From NCBI GenBank assembly GCA_012401045.1, contig GCA_012401045.1_4704.2: a DNA stretch of 64,000 bases. One strand, written 5' to 3'. This document shows, in pieces, positions 1,834-34,734 of this stretch. How positions within the stretch are numbered: position 1 is the stretch's first letter; every line of letters begins with the position of its first letter. This stretch comes from a phage. A program made the translations under genes and the position numbers. The notes under the pieces are model-generated. The model was not told the DNA's origin. It did no database searches and saw only the letters and a list, made by a program, of their open reading frames with translations.

Positions 1834-4743
1834 ATGAACGATATAAATAAAGGGCGCGTCGCCCTCGAACGTCAAATGAGTAATAATGACGTTGCGAAGG
1901 CACTCATGAACAAATTTGTCGCTCCTGCTCCGCAGTCACGTCTTTATAATACACGTGATGCGGAAGGAGCGAACGGTCGTTTCGGGTTAGTTGTTCCCGA
2001 CCAAATGACGATGAACACGGTTACGCGTGCGACCGCGACAAACATCGAGGATAATAAAAACATCCTCGAGTTGTTCCCTGAACTTAAACGTGTGATGCAG
2101 ATCTACGTTGCCGCGTTGACGAACCCTAACGATCTTAAGACGGTCGAGATGTTTATCGATAGCGAAGATTTCCCCGGCAGAGTCGCAGAAATCGTTCAGC
2201 CGATGATCGATACCATCGACACGCATTTTAAGAATATCTATAAAATAAAGACGCTTATCCCTCGTATCATCGAAGACGTCTTCTTTATCAAGGGCAGTTA
2301 TAACTTCGTTGTTCTGCCGGAAAGCACGCTCGACCGCGCCATTAATGGTAACGGTCAACTGAAACTTGAAGAATACGGATTTAAAGACAACCATTTTGCA
2401 AGTTGGGGGCTTCTAGGTAACGACAGTCGCAAACGCCACGAAAATCAATTACCTGCGACGGTTTCGATGGAAGATTATTTCTCGGGTGTTAATGAAACCA
2501 TACCGTACGATCCTGTTGTTCGCATAGACAGCATCAAGTTTACCAATACCCTGCTTCGCGATAAGGACGGTAAATTCATTGAAGCGAAGATCGATATTCC
2601 GGATATGGTTACGGTTGTCGATAACCCAGACATCCTCCGCATGCCTATTCTGCATCAACGTCGAGCAGCGACAGCAGTGCAGCGTGCGTTACGCGCAAAC
2701 ACGTTAGGAGGTAGTGGTTTGGTAACGCTGTCAGGCGATCCGACCCTAACCGCTAACCGACGTGAGCTGTCGCAAGAACAGGTTAACGAGATCTGGAATA
2801 AGCTCAACATCCAGCGCCACACCAAGGTATCGCCCGTTTACGCGCTGGCAACCCCAGATACGCTTGATCGTCAAAGCGTTGGCCATCCTGGCGTGATGCA
2901 TGTACCACCTGAGGCATTAGAACCCGTACATGCGCCCGGTGATCCTGAGAACCATATCGGGTATTTGGTTCAGTTGGATGAGTTTGGTTATCCAGTACGT
3001 TTGGTTGAAGATGCGGCGTATTACAAGCAGTTGGAAGGTCGGTTGTCGAAGATCACCGCAGATATCGCAGGTACGTCAAGCAACGGCATGGCGAGCGAGA
3101 TGATTGGTGCAGCCAAGAACATGATCCAGGGTACGTCATGTAATCAGGTAGACATGTCGGCCTTCGTATCATCGTACGAATCGCTGATGCAACGTTACAT
3201 TGTCGAACGTATCGTTAACGGTTATCTTGGCAGTGCGGTGGAGATCGGTGCGACATCATCGTTTTATCTGTCGATGCTTGCTCGTAGCCTCGCTCACAAG
3301 CAGACCCGTGTTTTGTTTATTCCTCGAGAGATGGTGACTTACATCGCTTATGAATACAACAAATACGGTATCGGTCGTTCGCTGCTTGAAAGTACGAAGA
3401 TGATCTCATCGCAACGAGCCATGCTCATGGTTCAAGAACTGATGGCGAAAATCAAAAGTTCGTTGAACTATACGACGCTAAGCGTAATGCTTGAAGACAC
3501 CGACAGAAACCCGGTCGATACCGTCGAACAAGCGCTGCATAGTTTCGCTCGTGTCTACCAGTCTGGTTTCCCTCTGGGTGAAACTAACCCGATGGATATC
3601 ATCAACGCGTACGAACGAAGCTCGATTCGATTGAAGGTTGAGGGGAATAACCCACGCTTCCCGAAATTGAATACAGACGTCAGTGTTGAGCAGCGTAACT
3701 ATCAGTCTCCTGATAATGAGCTGATGGATCGTTACCGTCGTGACCATTTCATGGGCTTGGGTGTGTCTCCGGAGATTATCGATACTTCCTACCAATCTGA
3801 ATTCGCAGCTTCTGTGATTACAGCTAACGCGATGCAAGAGAAACAGTTCACGGTTTGTCGTGAGGTGATCACGAATGGGTTATCGGACCACATCAAGAAA
3901 TATACGGCATACAGTCCCGTGTTGTTGACGTCGTTACGAAACACGGTTCGTGCGAACATGTCTAAGCTCTCCCAGGCACAATTGAAGCAGCTTTTTGGTA
4001 GCGATTTCGAAAACGGTGTTATCCGTAACGTTAACGCCTATCAGGAGATTGACGACCAATCAGCAACAATGGATCTGGATTACACTAAACCAGAAGTCCA
4101 GGAAGTTATTGCCGATGCTTATGTGTCCATGTTCTTAAACAGCCTGCGTGTGCGTTTACCGGATAGCAATGCCCGTCGCCTTGAAGATCAGGTACGTGAA
4201 TATAATCAGTACAAGGAAGCGATTACTGCGCAACTTGATGATTATTTAACGCCTGATTACGTCATGGGTCTGGGTGGGGTTGATGAAACAACGCTGCAGA
4301 TGATCCGCGCATGCATTATTGGTACCGCGATGCGTACGTGGGCAAAAGAGAACAACTTCAATCAGGAGCTGGCTGATCTCTTCAGTCTTGACGATAAGAA
4401 GAATGCCGTGCAAGATTGGAAACGTATGTCCATGGAACATATTGAAGTCATGGGTAAATGCATGGGTGATTTTGCATTGTATATTCAGAATCTGACGAAG
4501 AAGATTGAAGAGAAGATGGGAGCTCAAGCACAGGACGGTAGCGTTTCATCTGATGGTTCGTGGTCATCCGATTCAAGTAGCGATACCGGTTCTTCTGATG
4601 ACTTCGGTGGCGGTGACGATTTCGGAGATACCGATTTCGATACCGAAACGATGGAGGAAACCTCAACAGAAGAAACAACCACATCTGAGGATACGACGAC
4701 CGACACAACGTCAGAAGACGATACTTCAGGTGACATTGTCTAA
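1834..4743 (+). CDS. large protein (969 aa) with acidic Ser/Thr/Asp/Glu-rich C-terminal tail; possibly portal or other virion protein (unverified)
   Basis: ORF track; AGGAG about 10 nt upstream of ATG; last ~70 aa are SSDGSWSSDSSSDTGSSDDFGGGDDFGDTDFDTETMEETSTEETTTSEDTTTDTTSEDDTSGD. Confidence 0.85.
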   Translation: MNDINKGRVALERQMSNNDVAKALMNKFVAPAPQSRLYNTRDAEGANGRFGLVVPDQMTMNTVTRATATNIEDNKNILELFPELKRVMQIYVAALTNPNDLKTVEMFIDSEDFPGRVAEIVQPMIDTIDTHFKNIYKIKTLIPRIIEDVFFIKGSYNFVVLPESTLDRAINGNGQLKLEEYGFKDNHFASWGLLGNDSRKRHENQLPATVSMEDYFSGVNETIPYDPVVRIDSIKFTNTLLRDKDGKFIEAKIDIPDMVTVVDNPDILRMPILHQRRAATAVQRALRANTLGGSGLVTLSGDPTLTANRRELSQEQVNEIWNKLNIQRHTKVSPVYALATPDTLDRQSVGHPGVMHVPPEALEPVHAPGDPENHIGYLVQLDEFGYPVRLVEDAAYYKQLEGRLSKITADIAGTSSNGMASEMIGAAKNMIQGTSCNQVDMSAFVSSYESLMQRYIVERIVNGYLGSAVEIGATSSFYLSMLARSLAHKQTRVLFIPREMVTYIAYEYNKYGIGRSLLESTKMISSQRAMLMVQELMAKIKSSLNYTTLSVMLEDTDRNPVDTVEQALHSFARVYQSGFPLGETNPMDIINAYERSSIRLKVEGNNPRFPKLNTDVSVEQRNYQSPDNELMDRYRRDHFMGLGVSPEIIDTSYQSEFAASVITANAMQEKQFTVCREVITNGLSDHIKKYTAYSPVLLTSLRNTVRANMSKLSQAQLKQLFGSDFENGVIRNVNAYQEIDDQSATMDLDYTKPEVQEVIADAYVSMFLNSLRVRLPDSNARRLEDQVREYNQYKEAITAQLDDYLTPDYVMGLGGVDETTLQMIRACIIGTAMRTWAKENNFNQELADLFSLDDKKNAVQDWKRMSMEHIEVMGKCMGDFALYIQNLTKKIEEKMGAQAQDGSVSSDGSWSSDSSSDTGSSDDFGGGDDFGDTDFDTETMEETSTEETTTSEDTTTDTTSEDDTSGDIV

Positions 4744-4828: not shown

Positions 4829-5101
4829 TTACGAGGTTAACCACGATTCAATTGTGGTGAGTTTGCTTCTCAGTACGCGCCAACTAGGGTGTGGTGGGAT
4901 CACAGCGCCTTTGTCGATTACGGTTAGCTGAACCTGGTACTTCTGCTGCATACGCGCTACCGTGTCGCTTATCGAGAGGAAAAGCTGGTAACGTTCATAT
5001 GCCGTCAGTTCACTGTCCTGTTGAACTGCGTTGGCCGCTAACGTAATTTCGCGTAAGTCCTTTGCATCCACAGAGACGGTAATGAGTTTATATTGACTCA
5101 T
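4829..5101 (-). CDS. hypothetical small protein (90 aa)
   Basis: ORF track; AAGGAAA RBS 4 nt before ATG; bounded 3' by stem-loop element. Confidence 0.6.
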   Translation of the reverse strand: MSQYKLITVSVDAKDLREITLAANAVQQDSELTAYERYQLFLSISDTVARMQQKYQVQLTVIDKGAVIPPHPSWRVLRSKLTTIESWLTS

Positions 5102-5162: not shown

Positions 5163-7721
5163 TTACTGCTCTTCACGTTCCAGCAGATACTCGGAAGCGG
5201 TAATACCGTTTACCGTACGTACTGCTTTCAGACGAGTATCATCGCTCAGAATTACAGTAACAGATTGCAGACCTTTTACTTTGGTTTCGAAGGTCTTGAA
5301 CACCTGATCCAGCATACGAGCAATGCTTGGGTTGGTTGCAGCCGATGCGTGGGTGTAACCGCTCTGATTCAGCTTCAGAATCTTGGCGTTGGTCGGTACG
5401 CGAACAACAACATGCGGGCGCATCGCGAATACGCTGTGATTGAACCAGTAAGCGTCGTTACTATCTTCGTCGGTAACGATGTCTGGATTAACACGCATAT
5501 CCTCGACAGCCGCATCCGCCAAACGACGTTCGATTTCATCGGCGTCCAGAGAGCCATCTTTCTCCAGTTCTGCACGATACTCACTCATGGCAACCAGATG
5601 ACGTTCACGATTCGCTGCGGATTTTTCGTGAGCTGCTTTCAGGTAGTCATGCATGTTGTACAGTTCTGCCATGGAAAGACGAATGTTCCACTGACCTTCG
5701 CCGTCACGATTGCAGTAGAGACACTTCAGCATGTTGACCCAGGTATAGTAGCAATTGGAGAATTCATCTTCAATGAACTTCTGGTCCATTTTAAGATCGT
5801 GAATCAGCCAACCGGACAGTTCTCCGATATCATCAACGAAGCTAGAGATGGTGGTTTCAGAGAAGTTCTTCGGTACGATACGTTTGATCAGCTTATTGAC
5901 GTCTTTGGTCATGCTATCGTTCAGGAAATGCCAAATACGCAGAGGAATAACATCTCGATACTGTTGCATGATCTGACGATAAGCTTTGATATCGTCGCTA
6001 CGACCTTTATCAATAGACAACGCATCCAGGAATTCATGGATTGCATCCAGCTCTTTGTCGGTATAGGTTCCCAGATAGGAATTGACGGTGGCAAGGAATG
6101 CTAATGCGTCGTTTTGGTTGACGTCGGTGTTGGTCTGCTGAATGATTGCCACTGAAGCTTTGGTTTCAGCATCCTCAACGCTTGACGCTGCGATTGCGTC
6201 GGTGACGGTAAACAGTTTCATTTCGCGCTGCTCACCGACAACGATTGGCTCACGTTGAACCGGTTTGTTAAGACTAACACGAACAACTTCTGCTTGCGCG
6301 ATGCGATCCAGTTTTGCCATTTCCTGCTCTGCCATACGACGAGCGGTTGGATCTGATTCAAGTTCGATGTATTCCACTTCTTCCTCCGTGAGGGATGTAA
6401 TGTCAACAATGGTTTCATGAAGAATTCCGTTTTCGTCGATACGTGCTCGACGAGCGAAGTGCCTGAAGTCATACAACGTCGGCCAACGACTATTAGGTGC
6501 AAAGTCTTTGGCTTTCAGACGCATCTGCATAAATTCTTCATGTTGAACAACACGACCGTAACGCTTAGCATCTTCGGTCGCATCAATTGGATTAACGGTC
6601 TTTGTTACCGTAGCAGAACGAGCCGTACGAACGGGTTCCGGTTTCACCTGCGCAGGTTCAGGTTGAACGGGTTTCTGCTGCCCAGCCTTAACATGCCATT
6701 CTGGCTCTTCGTACTGTTCAGCAAACTGTTCAGCCGCTGCAAAGATATCGTTGATACCACCAATATCTCCTTCAGGATTTGTCGAGTAAATCCGTGGTTG
6801 TGGTGCCTCGTAACGCGGCGCTGTGTTAACAGGTACCTCATCAACGATAGGATCGTCATCACCAACATCATACAAACGGTTGAACGCACAATCCTTCGAA
6901 TCGATGTATGATGGCGCTTGTGGTTGGACAACCGTAGGTCGAGGTTGTGTGCCGTATCCTGGTGTTGTTGGAGCCATACCACGCATAACTGCAGGACTAG
7001 GTTGGTATTGCGGTTGTGGGTAGGTTCCACCATACATGGCGTACGCAGGCTGTTGTGGTTGACCATACCCGTTGCTAACCATCGCGCTTGCTTGCGGCCC
7101 ACGATAAGTCATCCCCATCTGCATCACCTGCTGCTTCAAACCACGTGATTTCTGAGCGATTTGCGCCAGGCTTCCGCTTTTATTCAGCTGCGTGTACTTA
7201 TTCGCGGCTTCCGGGTTAATGCGTGATAATTCAATCGCGCGATAATATTCCGGGTACTGATTCGGTTCAAAGAGCCACGTTACAAGATGATACAGCGCAA
7301 CTGTACTCACGGCAGCAGAGACGATCTGGTCATCGGACGCGTTCTGTGGCATCGGGTTGATGTAAGAGAACACGTTCCAACAACAGTCTTCAACAAGCGA
7401 TTCCATCATCATATCGTTATTGGTATAACGTGCGACGAACTCGGTTTGTATTTTGTCTTGCTGAGCGAAGTCTTTCAGGACATTAAAGATGGCTTGACGG
7501 ATTTTGACGATCGTCGCTTCTTGGGTGATGAAGTTATAGTTCTGCTGATATGAGGGTTGTTGGTATTGTGGTGGTTGATAGGCGTTATTCGGGTATGCGC
7601 CGTACGGCGATTGCTGATACTGTTGCTGACTAACCTGTTCAGCCGCATAATTAACCGTGCTCGTATAAGGGTTTTCGCTATAGCCCATTTGTTGATACAT
7701 GTTGTTACTGCCATTATACAT
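5163..7721 (-). CDS. hypothetical protein (852 aa) with Gln/Tyr/Pro-rich low-complexity regions
   Basis: ORF track; AAAGGA RBS; N-terminal ~60 aa and an internal ~75 aa stretch are Q/Y/P/G-rich (QQPAYAMYGGTYPQPQYQPSP). Confidence 0.85.
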   Translation of the reverse strand: MYNGSNNMYQQMGYSENPYTSTVNYAAEQVSQQQYQQSPYGAYPNNAYQPPQYQQPSYQQNYNFITQEATIVKIRQAIFNVLKDFAQQDKIQTEFVARYTNNDMMMESLVEDCCWNVFSYINPMPQNASDDQIVSAAVSTVALYHLVTWLFEPNQYPEYYRAIELSRINPEAANKYTQLNKSGSLAQIAQKSRGLKQQVMQMGMTYRGPQASAMVSNGYGQPQQPAYAMYGGTYPQPQYQPSPAVMRGMAPTTPGYGTQPRPTVVQPQAPSYIDSKDCAFNRLYDVGDDDPIVDEVPVNTAPRYEAPQPRIYSTNPEGDIGGINDIFAAAEQFAEQYEEPEWHVKAGQQKPVQPEPAQVKPEPVRTARSATVTKTVNPIDATEDAKRYGRVVQHEEFMQMRLKAKDFAPNSRWPTLYDFRHFARRARIDENGILHETIVDITSLTEEEVEYIELESDPTARRMAEQEMAKLDRIAQAEVVRVSLNKPVQREPIVVGEQREMKLFTVTDAIAASSVEDAETKASVAIIQQTNTDVNQNDALAFLATVNSYLGTYTDKELDAIHEFLDALSIDKGRSDDIKAYRQIMQQYRDVIPLRIWHFLNDSMTKDVNKLIKRIVPKNFSETTISSFVDDIGELSGWLIHDLKMDQKFIEDEFSNCYYTWVNMLKCLYCNRDGEGQWNIRLSMAELYNMHDYLKAAHEKSAANRERHLVAMSEYRAELEKDGSLDADEIERRLADAAVEDMRVNPDIVTDEDSNDAYWFNHSVFAMRPHVVVRVPTNAKILKLNQSGYTHASAATNPSIARMLDQVFKTFETKVKGLQSVTVILSDDTRLKAVRTVNGITASEYLLEREEQ

Positions 7722-7755
7722 TTCTTACGATCCTTTTTATTTATTCGGTTATGTG

Positions 7756-9552
7756 TCAATCGATTATGTCACGATCGTTAATTTCTACAATTTCTTCATC
7801 GAATCGACCGACGTCTTTCTTCAAGCCTGCATTGGTTGCTGCAACGTCATTTGCAATTTGTGGGGTAATGATTAACCGACCGCGTTCGTCGATAGGTGCG
7901 TACATACTGAACTTCTGACGTCCGGTTGGTTCGGAGTGTGGAAGATTCAGATAGCTTGCGCAGAACGGGATGGAACCACTAACCAAACGACTCTCGTCAG
8001 CCAATGCAGCACCGCCTGCGTTTTGGCTCTGGAGAACAACATGCGTGCTCACTTTGAACAGCATGCAATCACCAGGTGACTGAATCGATGTTGCCACTTT
8101 CTCACGTTTGTCACGATTGCTCTGGATATTGAGAATCGCTTCCGTTGCAACTTGATTTCGCAACGCCTTCTGTACATCGCGATTGGTCATCTCTTTACGG
8201 TTGTTCTGTCGTTTACCACGCTCCGTGGTTTTAAGATGGAACCCCAGTTTAAAGATGCTCTTACGCACATCCTCCATGACATATTCCAACACCATCAATT
8301 CCTTACCGAACATCGTCGTGGTATCAACACGACTCATTTCGATAGTAACATTGTCAATCAGATAGGCCATAAATTCATAGAAGTCGTCGCAAGGAATATT
8401 TTCCTGTTTGAACTTCTTCTGCTGAATTTCGTCAACGTAAAGATCGAGACTGTCGATGTGGTGGTTTACATCACGCAACAAACGCGCATCCGCATTGTTG
8501 TTATTAAAGATAATCAAACCGAGTAATGTACGCCAATGGTCTGGCGCATTCGCGAACTCCTCAACCGGATAGTCTTCCGGAAAACGATCGTAATAACGGT
8601 CGATGAGATACAAGAATGCACCGACAAGGCCAAGAACAATACGTTCCGTGCCTCCACGTCTTACAGCAATTTGAATATCAGGATGTTTGTAACGTACAGC
8701 GCTAGCGCTACGACTTTTACCGCTTTTGCTGATACTAAAACCTTTAGGAATAACCCCCATGGTGCGATAGATTACCCATTGGTCACGCGGAAAATCGCGT
8801 TCAGCAAGGTTCCGTCCGGTTACGGCTTCGACACCTGCAAAACGTCGGAAACACTCACCCACCCCGTACTTCGCAAAGAGATAGTGACCCAGTGTGGTTA
8901 CGCTGGTGTGGTTGATGTTGTCACCGTTCACTTTACTTTGTTTGGTAAGATGATAGATTTGTGACCAGGGTAATGACAGGTAATGACGATAATCGATACC
9001 GGTCGGTGTATCATTGCTCAGGAACTGATACGGCGTACGTTTAACCGTGATTTTGTCACGCGGAAGCATGATGAACGCCATGTCTTTCGTGTAACTGATT
9101 ACCGGGTCAGCGAGCACTGCACTGAGAATGAAGTTCGCACCACGTAGACGCATTTTACCACCCTGACCTACCGCGGGTAATAGGAGAGGATGTCGGATAA
9201 TGCAGTAGTCCTTTCCGGGTTCACGACGGTCACCTGATTCCATCGCGCCGTACCAGCGGAATTCTAGCATCACCATAAACACATCGGATGGCGCAAGGTC
9301 GAAGGTCAGCTTACCGCTATCCTTCCCTTTGGTTTTCTTTCCTCCGCTTAAGTAGTGGAACTGTTCGCGGGCCATACAGCGACGCAGGCCATGATACACC
9401 AGATCCTTAGGTAAACTATCTTTGCTGTTCCGCCAAAGACGATCAACATAGGACTCAACATCTTGCATCTTATCGACGACGATGTTGCGTGCTATCTTCT
9501 CGTTCATCTTCGGTGCAAGCCCAGCGACAGCTTTGCAGAATCTAGGATCCAT
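7756..9552 (-). CDS. hypothetical protein (598 aa)
   Basis: ORF track; start moved to second Met (ATG) preceded by AAAGGAG. Confidence 0.85.
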   Translation of the reverse strand: MDPRFCKAVAGLAPKMNEKIARNIVVDKMQDVESYVDRLWRNSKDSLPKDLVYHGLRRCMAREQFHYLSGGKKTKGKDSGKLTFDLAPSDVFMVMLEFRWYGAMESGDRREPGKDYCIIRHPLLLPAVGQGGKMRLRGANFILSAVLADPVISYTKDMAFIMLPRDKITVKRTPYQFLSNDTPTGIDYRHYLSLPWSQIYHLTKQSKVNGDNINHTSVTTLGHYLFAKYGVGECFRRFAGVEAVTGRNLAERDFPRDQWVIYRTMGVIPKGFSISKSGKSRSASAVRYKHPDIQIAVRRGGTERIVLGLVGAFLYLIDRYYDRFPEDYPVEEFANAPDHWRTLLGLIIFNNNNADARLLRDVNHHIDSLDLYVDEIQQKKFKQENIPCDDFYEFMAYLIDNVTIEMSRVDTTTMFGKELMVLEYVMEDVRKSIFKLGFHLKTTERGKRQNNRKEMTNRDVQKALRNQVATEAILNIQSNRDKREKVATSIQSPGDCMLFKVSTHVVLQSQNAGGAALADESRLVSGSIPFCASYLNLPHSEPTGRQKFSMYAPIDERGRLIITPQIANDVAATNAGLKKDVGRFDEEIVEINDRDIID

Positions 9553-9591
9553 CACACACTCCTTTCAGAAAGTTGCTTAAGCAGATTAAAG

Positions 9592-11028
9592 TTACTTTTT
9601 CGATGACGCTTTCTCAAGAATCTTGAAAAAGGTCATACCTATACCGACAACGGCCGCGGTTATGCTCGCAGCGGCTTTCCAAACATCGACGTTACGTTGA
9701 CGTCGCGCTTCTTCCGCTTCACGTTGTCTTTTTGCCTCTTCATCACGTCGACGTATCTCAGCAGCAAACTCGTCGTGCTTACGTTTGGATTCTTCGTCTC
9801 GACGACGAAGTTCAGCGACGAATTCTTCATGTTTGCGTTTAGCCTCGTCGTCACGACGTTTTAAATCAGCTTGATAATCTTCGTGTATTTGTCTACGTAG
9901 ATCATCTTGACGCTTCATTTCGGCTTGGTGTTGTTCCATCCTACGTTTTTGTTCGTCTTTAAGCTGATCGAGTTCGGCTTTATGTTGTTCATCGCGCAGC
10001 TTTGCGTCGGCGCGATGCGCCTCATGCATCTGTGAGATAACTGCCTTGTGTTCATCCGCCATACGTCGCATTTCAGCCATCACCCCTTTAAGGGTTTCTT
10101 CTGATGCCTTACGTTCGTAGCTACGTTGGTCGAAATCATTTTTGTAGGCTTCTTTTTGGATGGGGTCGCGCCAATGCAATGCCGATTCACGTGTCGGAAA
10201 AACATTGTACTTCCACATCTCTTTTTCCAAATCTTCGACCGGTACGAAGATGGAGTCATTATTCCCGAAGGTAACCAACATGCCTGGCGCGCCTGCTCCA
10301 TTCGTTGGTTTTATTTCGAACGCTTTCCCCAACACGTTAACCCATAAGCTATACGGATTATGAAAGTCGGGCGGCGTCCAATGGATAGTGAGTTGCGTTC
10401 CGAGAATCCGGAAACCCTCTGTTTTTCCCGTCAAGCTCCGCGCGCACGTTGCGATGTAGGGGTGATCAATCCCTTTCGTAACGTGGTCTGCGCTTTTGTA
10501 TTCTCCTTTAACTTTTACGATTGCCACGTTGATTTGCGCGACATAAGCGGGTTGATTAAAGTTCAACGTGTTGAGGTCAATTTGACATATTTCATCCAGC
10601 GTATCGTACCAGTCTTGCTGGTCTAATAGACGCGGCATTTTCTCTGTGTTAACAATACGACGGATATGCGGTTTCCTTATCGCGTAACCTGTACCGTTTT
10701 TAACACGGAGTATATCCCGACGTCTACCCGCGTAGACGAAGTTTCTGAATGCACCATTCGCATTAGATACGTCATGGCTGTCAACTATTACAGGACTACG
10801 AAATTTTGAACGTCGTACGATCCTGAATGTATTGCCGTCCTCAACCCTACCAGGAATGTACTGGAACATATTGTCGGAGGTGATAACCAACACGGTATGG
10901 CCAGATTCATTAATACATGCCCATCCTAATTCCAGGTCATATAACGGTTCAGCATAACCGTCAATGCGATAAGCGTGCGTACCATCCCACGGTTCGAACG
11001 CGGTATCACATATTGGCATGGAGGGCAT
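9592..11028 (-). CDS. hypothetical protein with E-R/K-rich repeat helix and C-terminal transmembrane anchor
   Basis: ORF track; start moved to ATG after GGAGG; about 2.5 tandem 16-aa repeats (RRRDEExKRKHEEFxAEL); terminal hydrophobic AAASITAAVVGIGMTFFKIL followed by KK. Confidence 0.85.
   Translation of the reverse strand: MPSMPICDTAFEPWDGTHAYRIDGYAEPLYDLELGWACINESGHTVLVITSDNMFQYIPGRVEDGNTFRIVRRSKFRSPVIVDSHDVSNANGAFRNFVYAGRRRDILRVKNGTGYAIRKPHIRRIVNTEKMPRLLDQQDWYDTLDEICQIDLNTLNFNQPAYVAQINVAIVKVKGEYKSADHVTKGIDHPYIATCARSLTGKTEGFRILGTQLTIHWTPPDFHNPYSLWVNVLGKAFEIKPTNGAGAPGMLVTFGNNDSIFVPVEDLEKEMWKYNVFPTRESALHWRDPIQKEAYKNDFDQRSYERKASEETLKGVMAEMRRMADEHKAVISQMHEAHRADAKLRDEQHKAELDQLKDEQKRRMEQHQAEMKRQDDLRRQIHEDYQADLKRRDDEAKRKHEEFVAELRRRDEESKRKHDEFAAEIRRRDEEAKRQREAEEARRQRNVDVWKAAASITAAVVGIGMTFFKILEKASSKK
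9690..9860 (-). repeat. imperfect in-frame tandem repeats (~48 nt units) encoding the E-R/K-rich helix
   Basis: Repeated cgacg/cttcat-containing units visible in DNA; repeated KRKHEEF motifs in protein. Confidence 0.6.
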
Positions 11029-11177
11029 CGTCAACCTCCATCAGATTGAAAACTATCACGCATAATACATTTCCCTTTTCTTGTTCTTATCGAGCCGACA
11101 GCCGACGGTTTCAGCATCGTTCCTAGCGCGAGAACGACCTTACGTGTTGTCTATGCCTTATTCATCGCAGGCGTCTG

Positions 11178-11365: not shown

Positions 11366-13588
11366 TCAGTTAGTCTGAACCGGCAGCTTGATGTTTTCAG
11401 TGTAGACCTTACGCAGGTTCACAACGTTAATCAGACCCAGCAGCGGGCAGTTGTTAACGAAGCGGCAGCGCGGCTGAACCATGGTTTCTTTAGAAACCTG
11501 ACCGTTACGGGTAACCTGAGCAACAGATACCAGTTCCGGTACGTACAGGAACATACCGAAGGTCAGCGGATCCGGAGAACCCTGGATACCACGAGACAGG
11601 GTCACGAAGATCTTATCGCGCAGCATGACGTTCGGGTTATCTACAACCACGAAGTTGAAGCTTACACCGACGGTACGGAAATCGCCATCGGTCTGCAGGA
11701 ACTGCGGGATGTAGTTGTCAGTTGCTACTACGCAACGCGGTTTCTCATCGGCGTTGGAAGACAGCAGCTGCAGAGCTGGCTGATAACCAGACTCGGAGTA
11801 CATGCGGTATGCCATCTCACGAATCACGTTCATGATCGCAGCAGACACTTCAGCACGACGTTCTGCAGTGGTGGTACCCTGAACAGATTTCTCCAGGTCC
11901 AGATTGATTTCTTCGAACCACGGACGGATCAGGTAACGACCGAAACCTTCGATCTGGATGTCACCGAACTGACGGAAGCGAGAGGTCGCAACCGCTTTCA
12001 GTGCGTCTTTGTAGCTGAACAGTTTCTCAACCATCAGGTTGTCGAAACGTGCGTTAGCAGCTTGGATCAGAACGTCCAGGTCAGCAGCGTTTTCTTCCCA
12101 ATCCAGCGGACGAGGAATGGAGAACGGAGCCAGCAGGCCGATTGCGTAACGTTCTTGCTTCATGTTGAAGTCAAGGTGCTTACCGCGTTCACGACGGTTG
12201 CTGTTGTTACGGCGGATACGCAGTTCGTAACCAACCAGTTTGAAGCTCAGGTCTTCAGCCAGTTGTTTGAACTCTTCGCTCTTACGCGGTTGTTCGATGT
12301 TGTCCTGATCAACCAGGCGATACAGTTCAGCGTTAGCGCCGTTAACACGCAGACCCGCTTTCTCTACGTTGGAAGAACCGTAAACTTCGATCGCCAGCTG
12401 AGCAGCAGATTTCGCATCGATGATGTCCTGCAGCGCTTCGGCTTTCGCACCTTTAACGTCTTTGGTGTTCTCATCAACGAAGATGGAGTGGGTGTCGAAC
12501 GCCAGGGTCATTTTGCGGAAGTCGCCTTCCAGGGATTTCTGGAAACCGTTGGTGATCAGACCAGATACGTCGAACGGTACGTAAGAGGTTTTGCTGTGCT
12601 TGGTAGATTTGATTTCCACCAGGATTTTGGTCAGCGTGATCTGGGCGTCCAGCGCGTCGGTGTTGTCGCTATAACCGTTAGCCAGGATGCTATCGTCTTC
12701 AGCGATACCGATCATGTCGATCAGTTTATCAACAGCCAGGTAAGACGTTTTATAAGTTACGCCTTTAATTTCGATGTCGCGCGGAGCAACGATAGCTTTG
12801 TCAACGAAGTACTGCGCGTTAGCATCGTCAGCACGATAGATCGGATGCAGATCGGTCACGTCGTTGGACAGAACGTCGTTGTACATGAACGCATCCAGCA
12901 GCGGACGACGTACCCAATCAGCCGGAGTACCGTCGGCGTTACGACGCAGGTGGTTGAACACCAGCGGACGACGGAAAGATACGTCGTAACCGATCTGGTT
13001 CGGAGCCAGAACGATGGTGTTGTACAGTTCGTTACCCATGCGGCTCAGACGAGAAGCCTTCACGTTGAACACAACGGAGTACGGCATCATGTCACGCAGT
13101 TCTTTCTGGTCGTAGGACAGCTGAACCAGTTCTTCAGATTCGCAACCGCAGGAATCAGCAGCCATCATGACGAAGTTAGAGCTGTCAACTTCACGGCCAG
13201 ACGGAGTGGTGCTGATGTTCATGGAACGTGCTTGTTTAGCATATTCCACCGGGTTACCATGAGCCAGCATGATCAGTGCTGCTGCACGAGCCTGCTGTGC
13301 GTTCATGGTGAACAGCTGTTCTTCAATACGCTGCTTCTCTTCCGGAGTGGTGGTTTCGAAGCCCAGCATGGACAGAACCGGTTCTTCTGCTTTACGGATG
13401 TCGCTGCTGAAGCTCTTAACATCCATTTCGTTAACCAGTTTGTCCATGGATTTGAAATCAACCTTAGAAGCAGATTCCATAGACAGGAAGGTGTTCTCCA
13501 GACCTTTGTCTGCTGGTTTGCTACCATTAGCGGTCAGGAACTGGCGAGTGGCCGCGACCTGTTGGCTAAGAAGGGTTTTATCATTCAT
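11366..13588 (-). CDS. major capsid protein candidate (740 aa, jumbo-phage size class)
   Basis: ORF track; size typical of phiKZ-like capsid proteins (~740-750 aa); very strong highly-expressed codon bias (ctg, cgt, ggt, aac); AAGGAT RBS; followed by stem-loop b. Confidence 0.7.
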   Translation of the reverse strand: MNDKTLLSQQVAATRQFLTANGSKPADKGLENTFLSMESASKVDFKSMDKLVNEMDVKSFSSDIRKAEEPVLSMLGFETTTPEEKQRIEEQLFTMNAQQARAAALIMLAHGNPVEYAKQARSMNISTTPSGREVDSSNFVMMAADSCGCESEELVQLSYDQKELRDMMPYSVVFNVKASRLSRMGNELYNTIVLAPNQIGYDVSFRRPLVFNHLRRNADGTPADWVRRPLLDAFMYNDVLSNDVTDLHPIYRADDANAQYFVDKAIVAPRDIEIKGVTYKTSYLAVDKLIDMIGIAEDDSILANGYSDNTDALDAQITLTKILVEIKSTKHSKTSYVPFDVSGLITNGFQKSLEGDFRKMTLAFDTHSIFVDENTKDVKGAKAEALQDIIDAKSAAQLAIEVYGSSNVEKAGLRVNGANAELYRLVDQDNIEQPRKSEEFKQLAEDLSFKLVGYELRIRRNNSNRRERGKHLDFNMKQERYAIGLLAPFSIPRPLDWEENAADLDVLIQAANARFDNLMVEKLFSYKDALKAVATSRFRQFGDIQIEGFGRYLIRPWFEEINLDLEKSVQGTTTAERRAEVSAAIMNVIREMAYRMYSESGYQPALQLLSSNADEKPRCVVATDNYIPQFLQTDGDFRTVGVSFNFVVVDNPNVMLRDKIFVTLSRGIQGSPDPLTFGMFLYVPELVSVAQVTRNGQVSKETMVQPRCRFVNNCPLLGLINVVNLRKVYTENIKLPVQTN

Positions 13589-24760: not shown

Positions 24761-27700
24761 TTACTTGTAGGCACCGCAATGGGCTTTGATGAGGAAAAGC
24801 ACCGCTTGCATCGGTTTATTGAACTGTTGCCATAACGTCAATGCCGGATGGAACAACCAATCTTCCAGGCCGAGAACAATACCGTAGTTAACGACATTAT
24901 TAACATCGTTCTCAACGTTGAGTTCGCTATCCAGGAATTTATCGATTGAACGCAGGGTCTGCATGGCGTTGTCAGCAATAAGCCAAGCTTCATGTGCTTC
25001 ACGAGCCGCACGCAGCACTGCCTCCAGTTCGCTGATAGTAGCTACCGGTAATTCCTCACTGGTGAGGTCGTCAGAAACCGTAAACTGGCGATTGATACCG
25101 GTGTAGATCCACTGCATCAGTTTCGCTGCTTCCTCGTTCGGGTTGTTACGCGTTGTCGCATAAGTCGCGCTCACCTTCACGATGTGCGTTTCACCAAGAT
25201 ACGCTTTGGACCCAACACCTTTACGATCGCTGTCTTTCCACGGTTGTACGGTAGCGACCATGAGCTTATCCCATTTCTGAATAGGAATACGCTTCAGACC
25301 AACAACCGATCCAGCGGATGTTTCGGACTGGTTGCTCTTCCGCACGTCGCTGAGCTCACGATCGATCGCAACGATTAATTCACGCGTCATGTTACCAAGC
25401 ATTTTGATTTCACCCAACGCAGCGATGAGCTTCTTCACATCGGTAACAGGTTCACCACCGATGGTAAGATGACGGATGAAACGTTTCAGAATAATCCGTT
25501 CTGCTGCTGGGTTACCGCGCCGCGCTTTGGCCAACGCTTGCTGTGTTTCGGCGAACAGCTTATCCCATGGAGCCGTAGCGGCGGTATAGTAACGATGGTT
25601 GGTTTCAATCCAGTTACCGATACGGTTGACCGCGGTCTTAACGGTATCCATGAATCCTTCCATCGCAATTTCGGTAGCTTCGACGTTACCCTGGAAGTTA
25701 TCAGGACCGATCTCGCGTGCCGCTACCAGAATACCTTCCACCGCGCTCACCGCGTGGCGACCGATAGCCAGATTTCGCTGCGCTTCTTCAGCACGCTCAA
25801 CGAATTCCACCACCGCAGGATCGTCAACGATTTCCACCTCAGCAACAACACGAGTACCAGCATCGCCTTCCAGTGTTTCGATGGTGACAACAGGATCGTT
25901 TTCACCAGCAACATCCTGGTATTCTTCCTGTTTGAGATCGCCGTTATCAGCCGCTGCGACAGCGGTGAGTATACGAATGGTAACATCGCCGAGTTCTTTT
26001 GCAGCGAATCCGTAAACGGTGCATGCGGTCGTTGCAAAGTTCATCAGGGTACGTGTGCGCTGCGTGACGTAGCGTGCGCCCGATTCGTTTTCCACTTTGT
26101 CTAGATCGCGGAGTAACTGCTCAGCCGTCTCCTGAAGTTGAGTAGCTGCTTTCAGGAGGTCTTCGTCAAACAGTTTTGTTGATGCATCGATCAGCATTTC
26201 AACGCTAACGTTGGGCGGTACAGCATCATCCTGCTGTTTCATGGCGCTAAGTTCGTAACGGAACTCACGAATGCCGTTTAACGCGTCGTCGATAGAATAT
26301 CCGAACGCTTTCACGCCCGCCATTCCAAGAGCTGCTTTCATTTCAGCTGGATGCTGAACTTGCTCGCCTTCCTTGCTGTTCTTTAACTCATCGAAATATT
26401 TCTTCGACGCGTCCGCAATACGTTTACTGTCTTTAACCGCATTTACGATCTTATCGACAGATTTCGAGTCGTTTGCGAGCAGCGTATCCAGTTTATTCCA
26501 CTCAACGTCAACCTTCTTGGTGTCGCTCGGCGGAGGAAGCAGTTTCATCACTGGTGCTGTGCGTTGTTCTTTGGTCAGCTTGTTGGCCTTCTCTTCGATT
26601 TTTTTCTTATTAACACCAAAGAGATTTTTCAAACGCGCCACGAGGGCTTTTAAGAACTTCGCGACCGCTTCGTAAACCGATTTCAGAATCTGTTTAAAGC
26701 GACCCGGCTGCTTTTCCCCGTCTTCCAGATTGAGATCGCTGTTCAGTGCGACATCAAGCTGTTTGTACGATTCCATGATGTATTCGTCTTTGATTTCAGG
26801 ACGAATCTCGAAGCTTTCCATCGGACCTTCAGCCGGACGGAATTCCATTTTCAGTTCGCCTTGCAGGGTAGGGTCGACAATGGCGATCGCTTCACCCTGA
26901 CCATCAGCGTTAAAGCGTTCAGCGTAACGAGTACGGCGAACAATAACACTCTTACCCCCGTCAAGACGACGTACCACCATGGTGCCAGGAATGTACGGTT
27001 GTTCTGTTTCAATGACGGTTACATCTGTTTCACCCTCACCGAGAATAACAGATGCACGCTGTTCAACAACAGGAACATCTAATACACCACGGGCTTCCAG
27101 CTCTTGATGAATTTCGAACGACTCTTGTTTCAGATCTTCATCTTCTTCGTTTTCGTCGTCTTCATCATCGCCACCTTTGGTGTTTTCATCACCCTTGGTG
27201 GTTGTGTCGTCGGTGGCACCAGCGTCAGCGTCGGTGTTAGCAGGTTCTTCGGACGCAGGTTCGGTGGTGTTGTCCTCCGTGGACGACCCGTCAGTGTTAT
27301 CGACATCAACATCACCTTGCAGTTCTGTTTCCTGAGCAACTGCTTCGGCTTTCTGCTCGCCGGTATTGCCGTCATTAGCGTCAACGACAGGTTGTTCGTC
27401 AGCGACGGTATCTTCAACCTTTTCTACTTTCTCCACGACACGTTTAATCACGGTGACTTTGATGGGTTCTTCCGTCGTTTTGGTTTCTGGCGTCGCCTCG
27501 GCTACCTCAGCTGCTGTTTCAGCAACAGGTTCTGCTTTTTCCGGTTCGACGACATTGCCTTTAACACCTTCGGTGGTTTCTGCAGGTTGCGTCGCCTGTT
27601 CGATTTGTGCCGGATTGGTTGGATCGATGGCGTTAGCCGCATCCTGAATCTTGTTCTTCAGGTTGTCGCGGTCAGCGTTAACGGTCGGGTCGTTGGTCAC

Positions 27701-28138
27701 TTTCGGTGCCGGTGTTTCGGTCGGTGCGTTTGCCGGATACGGGTTCTTCGGCTCTTCGCCAGGTGCGGTCGGTACCGCGATCAGAACGAACGGTTGAACA
27801 TCGTTACCGTCTTCCATGGTTACGCCACCGTTGCTCGGTGTGAAACGAATTCGTAAACTACCATCAATAGGACGGGTCACAATAACAGCACGTACGACAT
27901 CCTCACCGTTCTCATCCGTGCTACGAATCACACGAACAGCGTCATCAACGGTAGCCCCTTCCTCGAGCGTATCTGATTCGATCGTCGCTTCGATGCTGTC
28001 TGGCCGTGCCGCTGTAGGTAATGCGATCACTTGCTCTTCTTTATCAGTAGAAAGCGTTGCTTTGACTTCGATAGGTGTATCGCCGCTTTCCAGGTTAAGA
28101 TGCGACTTACGCATCAGATCAGCTAACGATTTTTTCAT
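24761..28138 (-). CDS. large virion-type protein (1125 aa) with acidic Thr/Glu/Asp-rich low-complexity segment; member of EGF-helix paralog family
   Basis: ORF track; AAGAGGAA RBS; motif EATEIAMEGFMDTVKTAVNRIGNWI shared with paralogs. Confidence 0.9.
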   Translation of the reverse strand: MKKSLADLMRKSHLNLESGDTPIEVKATLSTDKEEQVIALPTAARPDSIEATIESDTLEEGATVDDAVRVIRSTDENGEDVVRAVIVTRPIDGSLRIRFTPSNGGVTMEDGNDVQPFVLIAVPTAPGEEPKNPYPANAPTETPAPKVTNDPTVNADRDNLKNKIQDAANAIDPTNPAQIEQATQPAETTEGVKGNVVEPEKAEPVAETAAEVAEATPETKTTEEPIKVTVIKRVVEKVEKVEDTVADEQPVVDANDGNTGEQKAEAVAQETELQGDVDVDNTDGSSTEDNTTEPASEEPANTDADAGATDDTTTKGDENTKGGDDEDDENEEDEDLKQESFEIHQELEARGVLDVPVVEQRASVILGEGETDVTVIETEQPYIPGTMVVRRLDGGKSVIVRRTRYAERFNADGQGEAIAIVDPTLQGELKMEFRPAEGPMESFEIRPEIKDEYIMESYKQLDVALNSDLNLEDGEKQPGRFKQILKSVYEAVAKFLKALVARLKNLFGVNKKKIEEKANKLTKEQRTAPVMKLLPPPSDTKKVDVEWNKLDTLLANDSKSVDKIVNAVKDSKRIADASKKYFDELKNSKEGEQVQHPAEMKAALGMAGVKAFGYSIDDALNGIREFRYELSAMKQQDDAVPPNVSVEMLIDASTKLFDEDLLKAATQLQETAEQLLRDLDKVENESGARYVTQRTRTLMNFATTACTVYGFAAKELGDVTIRILTAVAAADNGDLKQEEYQDVAGENDPVVTIETLEGDAGTRVVAEVEIVDDPAVVEFVERAEEAQRNLAIGRHAVSAVEGILVAAREIGPDNFQGNVEATEIAMEGFMDTVKTAVNRIGNWIETNHRYYTAATAPWDKLFAETQQALAKARRGNPAAERIILKRFIRHLTIGGEPVTDVKKLIAALGEIKMLGNMTRELIVAIDRELSDVRKSNQSETSAGSVVGLKRIPIQKWDKLMVATVQPWKDSDRKGVGSKAYLGETHIVKVSATYATTRNNPNEEAAKLMQWIYTGINRQFTVSDDLTSEELPVATISELEAVLRAAREAHEAWLIADNAMQTLRSIDKFLDSELNVENDVNNVVNYGIVLGLEDWLFHPALTLWQQFNKPMQAVLFLIKAHCGAYK

Positions 28139-33411: not shown

Positions 33412-34734
33412 TTACTGCTGTGCTGCGTCAGCCGGTTTCTCAGCCGCCTGGCCGCCGTACTCTTTCAGCATTTTAGCAACGCCATCCAGGACAGCGTTAC
33501 CTGCCTGAACACCGTATTTCATCAGACCAGTCTGCGGGTTCACGTAGCAGGAACGTGCGTCTTTCAGTGCAGACAGTACAGCTTGAACACGCTGTTTTTC
33601 CTGAGCGGAAACTTCGCCTTTCTTAGACAGATCGGCTTCCATATCGTCACCGAATTTAACAGCGTCTTTGAAGCCCTGGGATTTCTTACCGATGTTGCCT
33701 TTCAGCGCCAGCAGTTTGTCAGCCAGTACTTCAACACCGCTAACCGCAGCAGCCAGCTGATTCAGGGACAGGACGGTAGCTTCAACTTCTTTTGCTTCGC
33801 CAGAGCGTTCCCAGGTTACTTTACCATCGTTGGCTTTGAAACCCCAGCCCGCAGGACCAGCAACGTCGGCAATCGCCGGAGCGTTCAGTTTATCAGCGTA
33901 CTCGGTGTGAGATTTAGCGACAACGGTACCAACGAATTTATCAGCACGATCGTCAGCAGCCTTCATTGCTTTCTCGAAGGTGTCAGCGATTTTGGTCGCG
34001 CCGGTAACCAGATCATCACCACCGATGTAACCAGAAACGCCGCTACCCAGCTTAACTTTGGTATTTTTAGCAACGCCTTTACGCTTGCCGATCATTTCTT
34101 TCAGTTTAGCAGCACGTGCTTTCAGTTTGGTCGCGCCGTCGAAGATGCGATCCATGAACTTCACGAAGGTTTCCCAGGAAGTTTTCAGGAAGTTCTTGAT
34201 GGTTGCCCACAGTTTCTGCCACCATTTTTGTTCTTCCAGGAAGATCATGTTGGTTGCATCGTAGCGGGAAGCGGAACCACCGAAGCTTTCGAAGGACGGC
34301 ATGGTTTCCGGCAGTTTGAAACCGATAGTACCACACAGACGTTTCAGATTACGCATGTGTTCCTGAGCGGTCTGTGCAGACATACCGCCGTCTTTCAGGT
34401 AGCTTTCGGTTGCAACAACGGTTTCCGTCAGTTCATCCATGGCTTCGTCCATGGCTTCTGCGGTTTCGTCGTCTTTTGCAATTTCGATAACAACAGCATC
34501 AACCTGCTCGATATCACCACGAACTTCGATAGCCAGTTCGGTTTCAGCTGCGGTATCTTCAGCGATTTCAGCACGTTCGGTCAGTTCAGCCACAACGGTT
34601 TCATCCGCTGGTGCAGCATCAGCTGCCGGTTCTGCTTCAACGGTTGCCGCTGCATCCGGGTCGATCTCAGCAGCCAGTTGAACCAGCTGTGCGTTAGATG
34701 GATTTGCGACAAGACGATCAAAAATAGAAGGCAT
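33412..34734 (-). CDS. abundant paralogous virion protein (440 aa) with acidic Ala/Glu-rich N-terminal region
   Basis: ORF track; AAAGGAAA RBS; strong highly-expressed codon bias. Confidence 0.9.
   Translation of the reverse strand: MPSIFDRLVANPSNAQLVQLAAEIDPDAAATVEAEPAADAAPADETVVAELTERAEIAEDTAAETELAIEVRGDIEQVDAVVIEIAKDDETAEAMDEAMDELTETVVATESYLKDGGMSAQTAQEHMRNLKRLCGTIGFKLPETMPSFESFGGSASRYDATNMIFLEEQKWWQKLWATIKNFLKTSWETFVKFMDRIFDGATKLKARAAKLKEMIGKRKGVAKNTKVKLGSGVSGYIGGDDLVTGATKIADTFEKAMKAADDRADKFVGTVVAKSHTEYADKLNAPAIADVAGPAGWGFKANDGKVTWERSGEAKEVEATVLSLNQLAAAVSGVEVLADKLLALKGNIGKKSQGFKDAVKFGDDMEADLSKKGEVSAQEKQRVQAVLSALKDARSCYVNPQTGLMKYGVQAGNAVLDGVAKMLKEYGGQAAEKPADAAQQ

Follow-up and report, generated by a model that had tools for sequence, protein, structure and literature searches.

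The gene and the organization of its product

The subject of this work is a gene in a stretch of phage DNA of 64,000 nucleotides (NCBI GenBank assembly GCA_012401045.1, contig GCA_012401045.1_4704.2; hereafter the window), which shares 98% identity with Escherichia phage vB_EcoM_Goslar. The open reading frame (ORF) spans positions 5163..7721 on the minus strand, starts with ATG and encodes 852 residues followed by a stop codon; its Goslar counterpart is gp038 (YP_009820723), annotated as 'hypothetical protein'. An earlier note on this DNA had singled out the product for Gln/Tyr/Pro-rich regions resembling eukaryotic low-complexity domains, and had proposed that it could be a scaffold or compartment component of a nucleus-forming jumbo phage. 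The ORF agrees exactly with that note, and both peptide stretches cited there occur in it. The jumbo-phage context also stands, given the near identity to Goslar and a PhiKZ-type major capsid protein (MCP) encoded nearby. As developed below, profile comparison and synteny identify the protein not as an orphan but as a divergent member of the JADA family (phiKZ gp124 / Pa36 gp316), orthologous to Goslar gp038.

An AGGA Shine-Dalgarno sequence (7731..7734, minus strand) lies 9 nt 5' of the ATG. The upstream neighbour on the same strand (7756..9555) encodes a subunit of the non-virion RNA polymerase (nvRNAP) similar to phiKZ gp123, the conserved synteny partner of JADA, and is separated from the ORF by a gap of 34 nt. 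We found no terminator-like hairpin in these 34 nt, and a scan for sigma-70 promoters and terminators returned counts that did not exceed chance.

The protein can be divided into five successive regions, all encoded on the minus strand. An N-terminal prion-like low-complexity tail (residues 1-63; 7533..7721) is specific to the Goslar clade. It is followed by an all-helical N-terminal domain (residues 64-195; 7137..7532; predicted local distance difference test score, pLDDT, 55-71), the positional equivalent of the JADA N-domain, and by a nearly uncharged low-complexity linker rich in Gln, Pro, Tyr, Gly and Met (residues 196-272; 6906..7136). The linker continues as an acidic Pro-rich region (residues 273-350; 6672..6905; net charge -11), which leads into the JADA-type C-terminal domain (residues 351-852; 5166..6671; net charge -20). 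In the AlphaFold2 (AF2) model, the predicted helices cover residues 56-215, and low complexity coincides with low pLDDT over residues 196-350. Family motifs are scattered along the C-domain (WPTLYD, EYIELESDP, PLRIWHFLNDSMTKDVNKLIKR and TISSFVDDIGEL), which also harbours a helical-hairpin insertion of about 85-100 residues (residues ~675-760; 5442..5699) found only in the Goslar clade and in a metagenomic relative, P0005; the other 15 JADA C-domains of the alignment lack it. The net charge of this insertion is -11, and no other part of the two AF2 models is predicted as well (pLDDT up to 82). A Pfam match of the insertion to Cas9_C_2 scored 18.6 bits, below the cutoff of 27, and is probably due to chance.

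The acidic continuation of the linker holds two conserved elements, the motif NRLYDVGDDDP and the amphipathic helix GGINDIFAAAEQFAEQYEEPEW. The motif (window 6840-6880, minus strand; residues 281-291) recurs after the linker in several clades, the L003 and L002 homologs among them, with the versions NRLYDVGDDDP in Goslar, NSLYDVPVNEP in 201phi2-1, NAAYDVPGSSP in phiKZ, FDYDEDD in P0005 and FSYDEVP in PCH45. The acidic helix is kept in the Goslar clade and in P0005. Both elements, the YDV...P motif and the helix, may be linear binding motifs.

Two prion-like low-complexity segments

Composition analysis confirms that the Gln/Tyr/Pro-rich segments are real and compositionally prion-like, with the low-complexity signal present in residues 1-63 and 196-272 and probabilities ranging from 1e-7 to 1e-17. 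Gln (23%), Tyr (18%), Asn (13%) and Pro (10%) dominate residues 1-61. Over residues 1-63, these four amino acids account for 41 of 63 positions (65%, against a background of 0.167 elsewhere in the protein; binomial P=1.5e-17), charged residues are reduced to 2/63 (3%, P=1.3e-7) and Shannon entropy falls to 2.75-2.9 bits. The internal linker is similarly biased, since Gln, Tyr, Pro and Gly make up 43 of the 77 residues in 196-272 (56%, P=1.4e-16) and only 4/77 are charged. In sliding windows of 40 residues, residues 1-60 attain a summed Q+N+Y+P+G+S fraction of 72-80% and residues 201-260 one of 68-70%, with 3-5% charged residues and an entropy of 2.9-3.2 bits in both segments. The protein is a clear outlier in this respect among the 43 long ORFs of the window, its maximal Q/N/Y/P/G fraction per 40 residues being 0.78 versus at most 0.57 in all others.

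The bias also shows a pattern. The 12 tyrosines of the N-terminal tail are spaced by 3-10 residues with a coefficient of variation of 0.32, an evenness matched by 13 of 20,000 shuffles; for the longer variant P0003, none of the 20,000 shuffles is as even. The resemblance to eukaryotic low-complexity domains claimed in the earlier note is thus borne out by the near absence of charge, the richness in Gln, Asn, Tyr, Pro and Gly and the evenly spaced Tyr of the tail. A DNA microsatellite was rejected as the origin of the bias because Tandem Repeats Finder returns nothing. Moreover, the bias stays in frame in four relatives with 79-95% identity, which display in-frame indels and tails of 61-73 residues. 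Among these Goslar-clade relatives, 18 of the 20 aromatic positions of the two segments are invariant versus 86/120 of the other residues. AlphaFold pLDDT values of 21-34 in both segments, versus 55-71 in the helical domain between them, lend weak support to disorder, the overall model being poor.

A divergent member of the JADA family

The name Jumbo phage Avs5 Defense Activator, in short JADA, was given to Pa36 gp316 by Muralidharan et al. (bioRxiv 2025; Mol Cell 2026, PMC12931631). In Pseudomonas phages, the protein is early, abundant and important for infection, and its gene is always located directly 3' of an nvRNAP subunit gene (PMC12931631). The C-domain (PDB 9RP3) is a rigid ring-like homodimer of novel fold with an acidic base, while the N-terminal domain and the linker are invisible in the cryo-electron microscopy map; the C-domain alone activates the Sir2-STAND sensor Avs5 (PMC12931631). 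Before infection, a JADA-mScarlet fusion is diffuse; afterwards it gathers in foci at early-infection (EPI) vesicles (PMC12931631). In phiKZ, knock-down of PhiKZ124 by antisense oligonucleotides (ASO) hampers propagation and, at 30 min, strongly disturbs phage transcription; the gene was classed as uncharacterised and 'non-core' (Gerovac et al., Nature 2025, PMC12571901).

Gene order gives one of the two lines of evidence for the assignment. In phiKZ, the order is MCP gp120, gp121, gp122, nvRNAP gp123, gp124 (721 aa) and, further on, portal gp129, and gp124 is therefore the positional equivalent of the 852-residue ORF. The succession MCP, x, nvRNAP subunit and JADA gene is shared by Goslar, phiKZ, 201phi2-1, two Xanthomonas phages, the metagenomic relative and 11 further chimalliviruses, and an nvRNAP gene directly upstream on the same strand is also found in 18 other loci. 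The link to the solved structure is direct on the phiKZ side, since phiKZ gp124 is 99.9% identical to PDB 9rp3_A ('Gp316/JADA').

Profile comparison gives the second line. Aligning a Goslar-clade profile with a seven-protein profile of the gp124 family by hhalign yields a probability of 99.1% and E=6.4e-19 over 244 columns, residues 403-673 of Goslar being matched to residues 364-626 of phiKZ, that is, within the C-domain. Similarly, a hidden Markov model (HMM) built solely from the C-domains of Pseudomonas and Xanthomonas phages retrieves the window protein with E=5.9e-10 at the first iteration (Z=1e6), while eight unrelated window proteins run as controls against the family C-domain profile give E>=0.038. 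Individual sequences point in the same direction with less power. The pairwise BLASTP match to phiKZ gp124 is marginal (E 4e-4), and phmmer aligns the protein with the Xoo-sp14 homolog outside the low-complexity regions (2e-4 at Z=1e6), with the shared motifs WPxxYD, M(D/E)Y..E, P.R.WH.LND..T..VN and TI..F.DD.G.L. Membership of the C-domain in the family is established at this level, that of profile comparison and synteny.

Pfam and PHROGs scans of the 852-residue protein gave no usable match, and tblastn of the protein against 50,697 phage records retrieved only Goslar. A word-indexed search returned only four near-identical proteins with the full-length query, the same four Goslar-clade proteins with a 17-sequence family alignment, and nothing with residues 381-852, which missed even their own cluster; negatives of this method are therefore unreliable here. 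With residues 381-852 against 1.84 billion representatives, phmmer recovered the protein's own clade and one distant relative, P0005, without linking it to phiKZ-type JADA. P0005 is 39% identical in the C-terminal region and displays the same gene order in a jumbo-phage contig. A further match of that search, P0006, is a spurious repeat protein. Since a profile search against PDB sequences was also negative, the link requires profile-profile comparison or intermediate sequences. On the structural side, a Foldseek search of the AF2 C-domain against 350,542 PDB chains ranks 9rp3_A and 9rp3_B first; as the model is poor, this ranking is consistent with JADA membership but not decisive.

The earlier note had considered that homology to a well-characterised structured family would speak against its reading. 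Such homology does exist, as most of the protein is structured and belongs to a described family with a solved C-domain, but it leaves the low-complexity parts untouched, since these fall in the regions that are invisible in 9RP3. No homology to chimallin or to known shell-associated proteins was detected, the Pfam and PHROG scans being empty and the relatives belonging only to the JADA family. We also considered, and rejected as unsupported, a role in the virion or inner body of a protein whose propeptide would be cleaved off, because the phiKZ record holds no structural note for gp124 and many for its neighbours, and because the orthologs are early cytoplasmic proteins. Finally, a literature search for Goslar gp38 returned no data on it; the 'gp38'/'gp038' of an EPI-vesicle preprint is phiKZ gp38 and not the Goslar gene.

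Lineage-specific linkers across the family

We extended the comparison to the ORF located downstream of the nvRNAP subunit gene in 21 chimalliviruses, including the window, P0003 and P0005. By iterated HMM, 18 of these are clear JADA homologs, and the Halocynthia phage (E 3e-7), YongXC32 (1.8e-5) and Miami (1.7e-4) proteins are probable homologs by hhalign. In Photobacterium phage PDCC-1 (L021 5311-7687), the JADA position is occupied by five small ORFs unlike the JADA C-domain profile. The gene thus appears to have been lost, replaced or relocated in this phage, in agreement with its 'non-core' status.

All 21 proteins have a low-complexity stretch on the N-terminal side of the C-domain. It takes the form of a low-order region of 40-157 residues in 19 of them, Noxifer and P0005 having just shorter low-entropy linker segments; in Miami, the low-order stretch is N-terminal and the linker region contains a shorter low-entropy Q-rich segment. 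The chemistry of these linkers falls into two broad types. Polar/aromatic linkers are found in the Goslar clade (Q/P/Y/G), phiKZ (G/P/Q/M), Desertfox (Q/M/P), Eowyn (Q 29%, P 12%, Y 10%), the Halocynthia phage (G/M/Q/S), RTH11 (N/G) and FLC9, in which a G/Q/N background is punctuated by regular Trp with an aromatic evenness matched by 26 of 20,000 shuffles. Arg-rich mixed-charge linkers are found in Xoo-sp14, RSF1, FBKp24, PCH45, PhiEaH1 and BUCT660, with 22-38% Arg, 14-26% Asp plus Glu and dense RG, RS and RD dipeptides. Whatever the type, lysine is limited to 0-2% of the low-complexity stretches in 20/21 proteins and to 4% in YongXC32. The flavour may differ between fairly close relatives, as in Xoo-sp14 (R/D/G) versus RTH11 (N/G) or RSF1 (R/D) versus FLC9 (G/Q/N/W). 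Besides the linker, an extra N-terminal low-complexity tail is found in the Goslar clade, Desertfox (Q/M/P) and Miami. The Gln/Tyr/Pro-rich segments of the window protein are hence the local form of a property of the whole JADA family, in which position, low complexity and near absence of Lys are conserved while the chemistry switches between lineages.

These extreme, lineage-specific linkers and the Tyr-patterned tail of the Goslar clade are not mentioned in the text of PMC12931631. Likewise, the text and consulted supplements of PMC12931631 and PMC12571901 make no mention of low complexity or condensates or of Goslar gp38. The JADA family, its disordered linker and the condensate-forming low-complexity tail of ChmC, another chimallivirus protein, are already published. 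What is new is a divergent JADA member together with an unreported family-wide pattern of interchangeable low-complexity arms, an incremental advance rather than a new kind of system.

Neighbouring genes and other low-complexity regions

The remaining genes around the ORF comprise a 90-residue ORF (4829-5101, minus strand), a portal-like virion protein (1834-4743, plus strand), a 480-residue ORF (9592-11034, minus strand) and the PhiKZ-type MCP (11366-13588, minus strand; PF25620, E 5e-218). The 480-residue ORF sits between the MCP and nvRNAP genes, which is the position of phiKZ gp122, whose knock-down strongly perturbs phage transcription as well (PMC12571901). No pairwise similarity was detected between the 480-residue protein and phiKZ gp122, and PHROGs gives just a weak match (phrog_7727). 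A K/R/E/D repeat of high charge (RRDDEAKRKHEEFVAELRRRDEESKRKHDEFAAEIRRRDEEAKRQ) makes up the C-terminal third of the 480-residue protein, and the hydrophobic C-terminal helix that comes after it (VWKAAASITAAVVGIGMTFFKIL) is tail-anchor-like in appearance.

Low-entropy stretches of other kinds occur elsewhere in the window. The portal-like protein ends in an acidic S/T/D/E-rich tail (SSDGSWSSDSSSDTGSSDDFGGGDDFGDTDFDTETMEETSTEETTTSEDTTTDTTSEDDTSGD, residues ~920-969), whose entropy of 2.37 bits is the minimum of the window. Two further stretches of 40 residues are found near residue 185 of ORF 24761-28138 (minus strand; 2.73 bits) and near residue 27 of ORF 33412-34734 (minus strand; 2.62 bits); both differ in composition from the 852-residue protein.

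A proposed sticker-arm model for the low-complexity segments

The reading that we favour, with a probability of roughly 0.55, is that the protein is a divergent JADA whose Q/Y/P segments serve as flexible, multivalent 'sticker' arms on a dimeric core and aid its recruitment at the site of early infection. The arms would be of the sticker-and-spacer type and, should the C-domain form the dimer seen in 9RP3, there would be two linkers and two N-terminal tails per dimer. By contacting each other, phage transcripts or ribosomes, or other early proteins in a weak and collective manner, they would help JADA and its N-domains to accumulate at the early-infection vesicle or the nascent nucleus. There, the structured domains would perform a step on which the switch to middle and late transcription by nvRNAP depends. 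The chemistry of the arms, aromatic/polar or Arg-rich, would be interchangeable between lineages. Several features argue for such arms. The biases are extreme, recurrent and typical of domains of this kind (Tyr or Arg as stickers, Arg over Lys), the aromatics are evenly placed in the Goslar tail and the FLC9 linker and preferentially conserved, a free N-terminal tail cannot be a tether, and ChmC provides a precedent in the same phages.

The main rival sees the segments as passive spacers, entropic flexible tethers between the N-domain and the dimeric C-domain whose composition drifts as long as they stay unfolded and soluble. We consider it rather unlikely, although several observations speak for it. 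Neither sequence nor composition of the linker is conserved between lineages, its length varies from 45 to 157 residues, close relatives differ in flavour (the Xoo-sp14/RTH11 and RSF1/FLC9 pairs), P0005 does without the N-terminal tail, and the authors of the JADA study call the linker simply disordered or flexible (PMC12931631). However, drift would hardly produce recurrent extremes such as Arg up to 38% with Lys near 0%, a content of charged residues no higher than about 5% in the Q/Y segments of the Goslar clade, or Trp or Tyr at regular intervals in G-rich spacers. It also leaves unexplained the even Tyr spacing (13/20,000 and 0/20,000 shuffles) and the preferential invariance of aromatics, and the extra free N-terminal tail tethers nothing. 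A different function, to which we attach a low probability, is that of a docking platform, in which the arms, or short motifs lying within them, would recognise particular partners (host proteins, phage mRNA or nvRNAP subunits, for instance) instead of working as a collective. It is favoured by the constant pairing with an nvRNAP subunit gene, by the apparent recurrence across clades of the 'L/A-Y-D-V...P' motif and of the acidic amphipathic helix after the low-complexity region, and by the recovery of phiKZ gp124 in pull-downs of host DnaX/FtsZ complexes, reportedly and as cited in PMC11849849. The motif is short, though. The Arg-rich RG/RS/RD linkers of relatives do resemble RNA-binding tails, but arms of the uncharged Q/Y/P type cannot bind RNA electrostatically, and RNA binding is therefore not a common denominator of JADA arms.

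The strongest version of the original proposal, in which the Q/Y domains would by themselves cause self-templating aggregation or form a liquid compartment building or coating the phage nucleus, is the least probable of these readings. Its appeal lies in the Sup35- and FUS-like composition, the Tyr patterning and the ChmC precedent. Yet the shell of the phage nucleus is already built by chimallin, a Pro content of 10-17% disfavours amyloid, and most family members, the nearest relative included, lack the Q/Y tail. Orthologs do form foci in infected cells, but these are located at the EPI vesicle with no shell or nucleus coat described, and an ortholog expressed alone is diffuse (PMC12931631). 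The compartment part of the earlier proposal thus survives in the form of ortholog foci at the EPI vesicle. The scaffold or condensate part is conjectural, and the diffuse state of the ortholog outside infection speaks against condensation of the protein on its own.

A number of observations weigh against the sticker-arm model itself. The same diffuse state of JADA-mScarlet implies that, at the expression levels in question, assembly is not brought about by the arms alone. Aromatic evenness is not significant in the internal linker of Goslar (3567 of 20,000 shuffles as even) nor in that of Eowyn (2850/20,000). Moreover, P0005, the closest relative outside the Goslar clade, has no Q/Y-rich N-terminal tail, and the tail is therefore dispensable for the core function of the family. 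The structural side of the model is also fragile. Mean pLDDT is as low as 37.7 for the full-length AF2 model and 43.2 for residues 351-852, both models being poor because their alignments are shallow and made up of the window and Goslar-clade sequences only, and the Foldseek match to 9rp3 is weak (E 0.014-0.031, TM 0.14-0.17). That the Goslar C-domain folds and dimerises as in 9RP3 is accordingly a deduction from sequence. In the same vein, homology of the N-domain to that of JADA was not detectable, as an iterated N-domain HMM never recruits the Goslar clade and hhalign of the N-domains gives E 0.1-0.19; this domain would be either too diverged or different. Finally, the functional data were all obtained with Pseudomonas phages, and the C-domains of these share about 14-17% identity with that of the window protein.

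A bolder extension of the sticker-arm model, which we regard as unlikely, would make JADA a family-wide phage 'condensate seed', with a dimeric core and interchangeable arms, Tyr/Gln-rich in Goslar-type phages and RGG/RS/RD-like in others, nucleating on the early-infection vesicle a membraneless hub in which phage transcripts, ribosomes and nvRNAP subunits come together. If true, this would be a viral analogue of eukaryotic FUS-type and SR-type assemblies, and it would explain both how the vesicle hands transcription over to the nascent phage nucleus and why the host STAND sensor Avs5 patrols the early-infection vesicle. Independently of this extension, JADA matters as an important early protein of nucleus-forming jumbo phages and as the trigger of an anti-jumbo-phage immune sensor. 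The JADA identity of Goslar gp038 extends the family to an E. coli model phage, for which there are reports of dCas13d knock-down (of ChmC) and of EPI vesicles stained with MitoTracker. This identity also suggests that the gene, listed as 'non-core' in PMC12571901, occurs more widely than simple sequence clustering indicates. The arms offer a testable handle on the recruitment of JADA into early-infection-vesicle foci.

Comparison with known systems

The N-domain of yeast Sup35 and the N-termini of FUS, EWS and TAF15 are prion-like low-complexity domains, and serve here as a first reference. Like them, the segments of the window protein are uncharged, rich in Gln, Asn, Tyr, Gly, Pro and Ser, about 60-75 residues long, and contain a Tyr every 3-10 residues. 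The likeness concerns composition, length and Tyr spacing; the Goslar segments are Pro-rich, belong to a bacterial virus and have no sequence homology to these domains. RGG, RS and mixed-charge (R/D, R/E) domains, which are found in eukaryotic RNA-processing proteins, are a second reference that applies not to the window protein but to the linkers of PCH45, PhiEaH1, RSF1, Xoo-sp14, FBKp24 and BUCT660. These share with RGG and RS domains 22-38% Arg, about 0-1% Lys, dense RG, RS and RD dipeptides and alternating charge; unlike in SR proteins, phosphoregulation is not expected.

The closest system is JADA as described for phiKZ gp124 and Pa36 gp316. The window protein resembles it in being encoded by a chimallivirus, in having a homologous C-terminal domain, in the position of its gene, which immediately follows an nvRNAP subunit gene on the same strand, and in the order of a helical N-domain, a long disordered linker and a large acidic C-domain. 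It differs from the phiKZ protein by a C-domain identity of ~16%, an extra Tyr/Gln-rich N-terminal tail of 63 residues, a helical-hairpin insertion of about 85-100 residues in the C-domain, and a Q/P/Y-rich rather than G/P/Q/M-rich linker.

The other comparison within these viruses is with the chimallivirus RNA-binding protein ChmC (PhiPA3 gp61 / phiKZ gp67 / Goslar gp176). Its fold, a Whirly tetramer, is unrelated to that of JADA, RNA binding has been demonstrated for ChmC only, and its tail is C-terminal, 50-70 residues long, N/G-rich and followed by an acidic cluster. This tail is needed for the formation of RNA condensates in vitro and for localisation to the shell. The earlier description of such domains as unusual for phage proteins was therefore overstated for this virus family, Goslar itself encoding a protein with a condensate-driving tail. 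The two proteins share, nevertheless, a common layout. Both are early and abundant (for JADA, the orthologs of Pseudomonas phages), are encoded next to nvRNAP subunit genes, form puncta in infected cells (for JADA, the orthologs) and combine an oligomeric folded core with a disordered low-complexity region.

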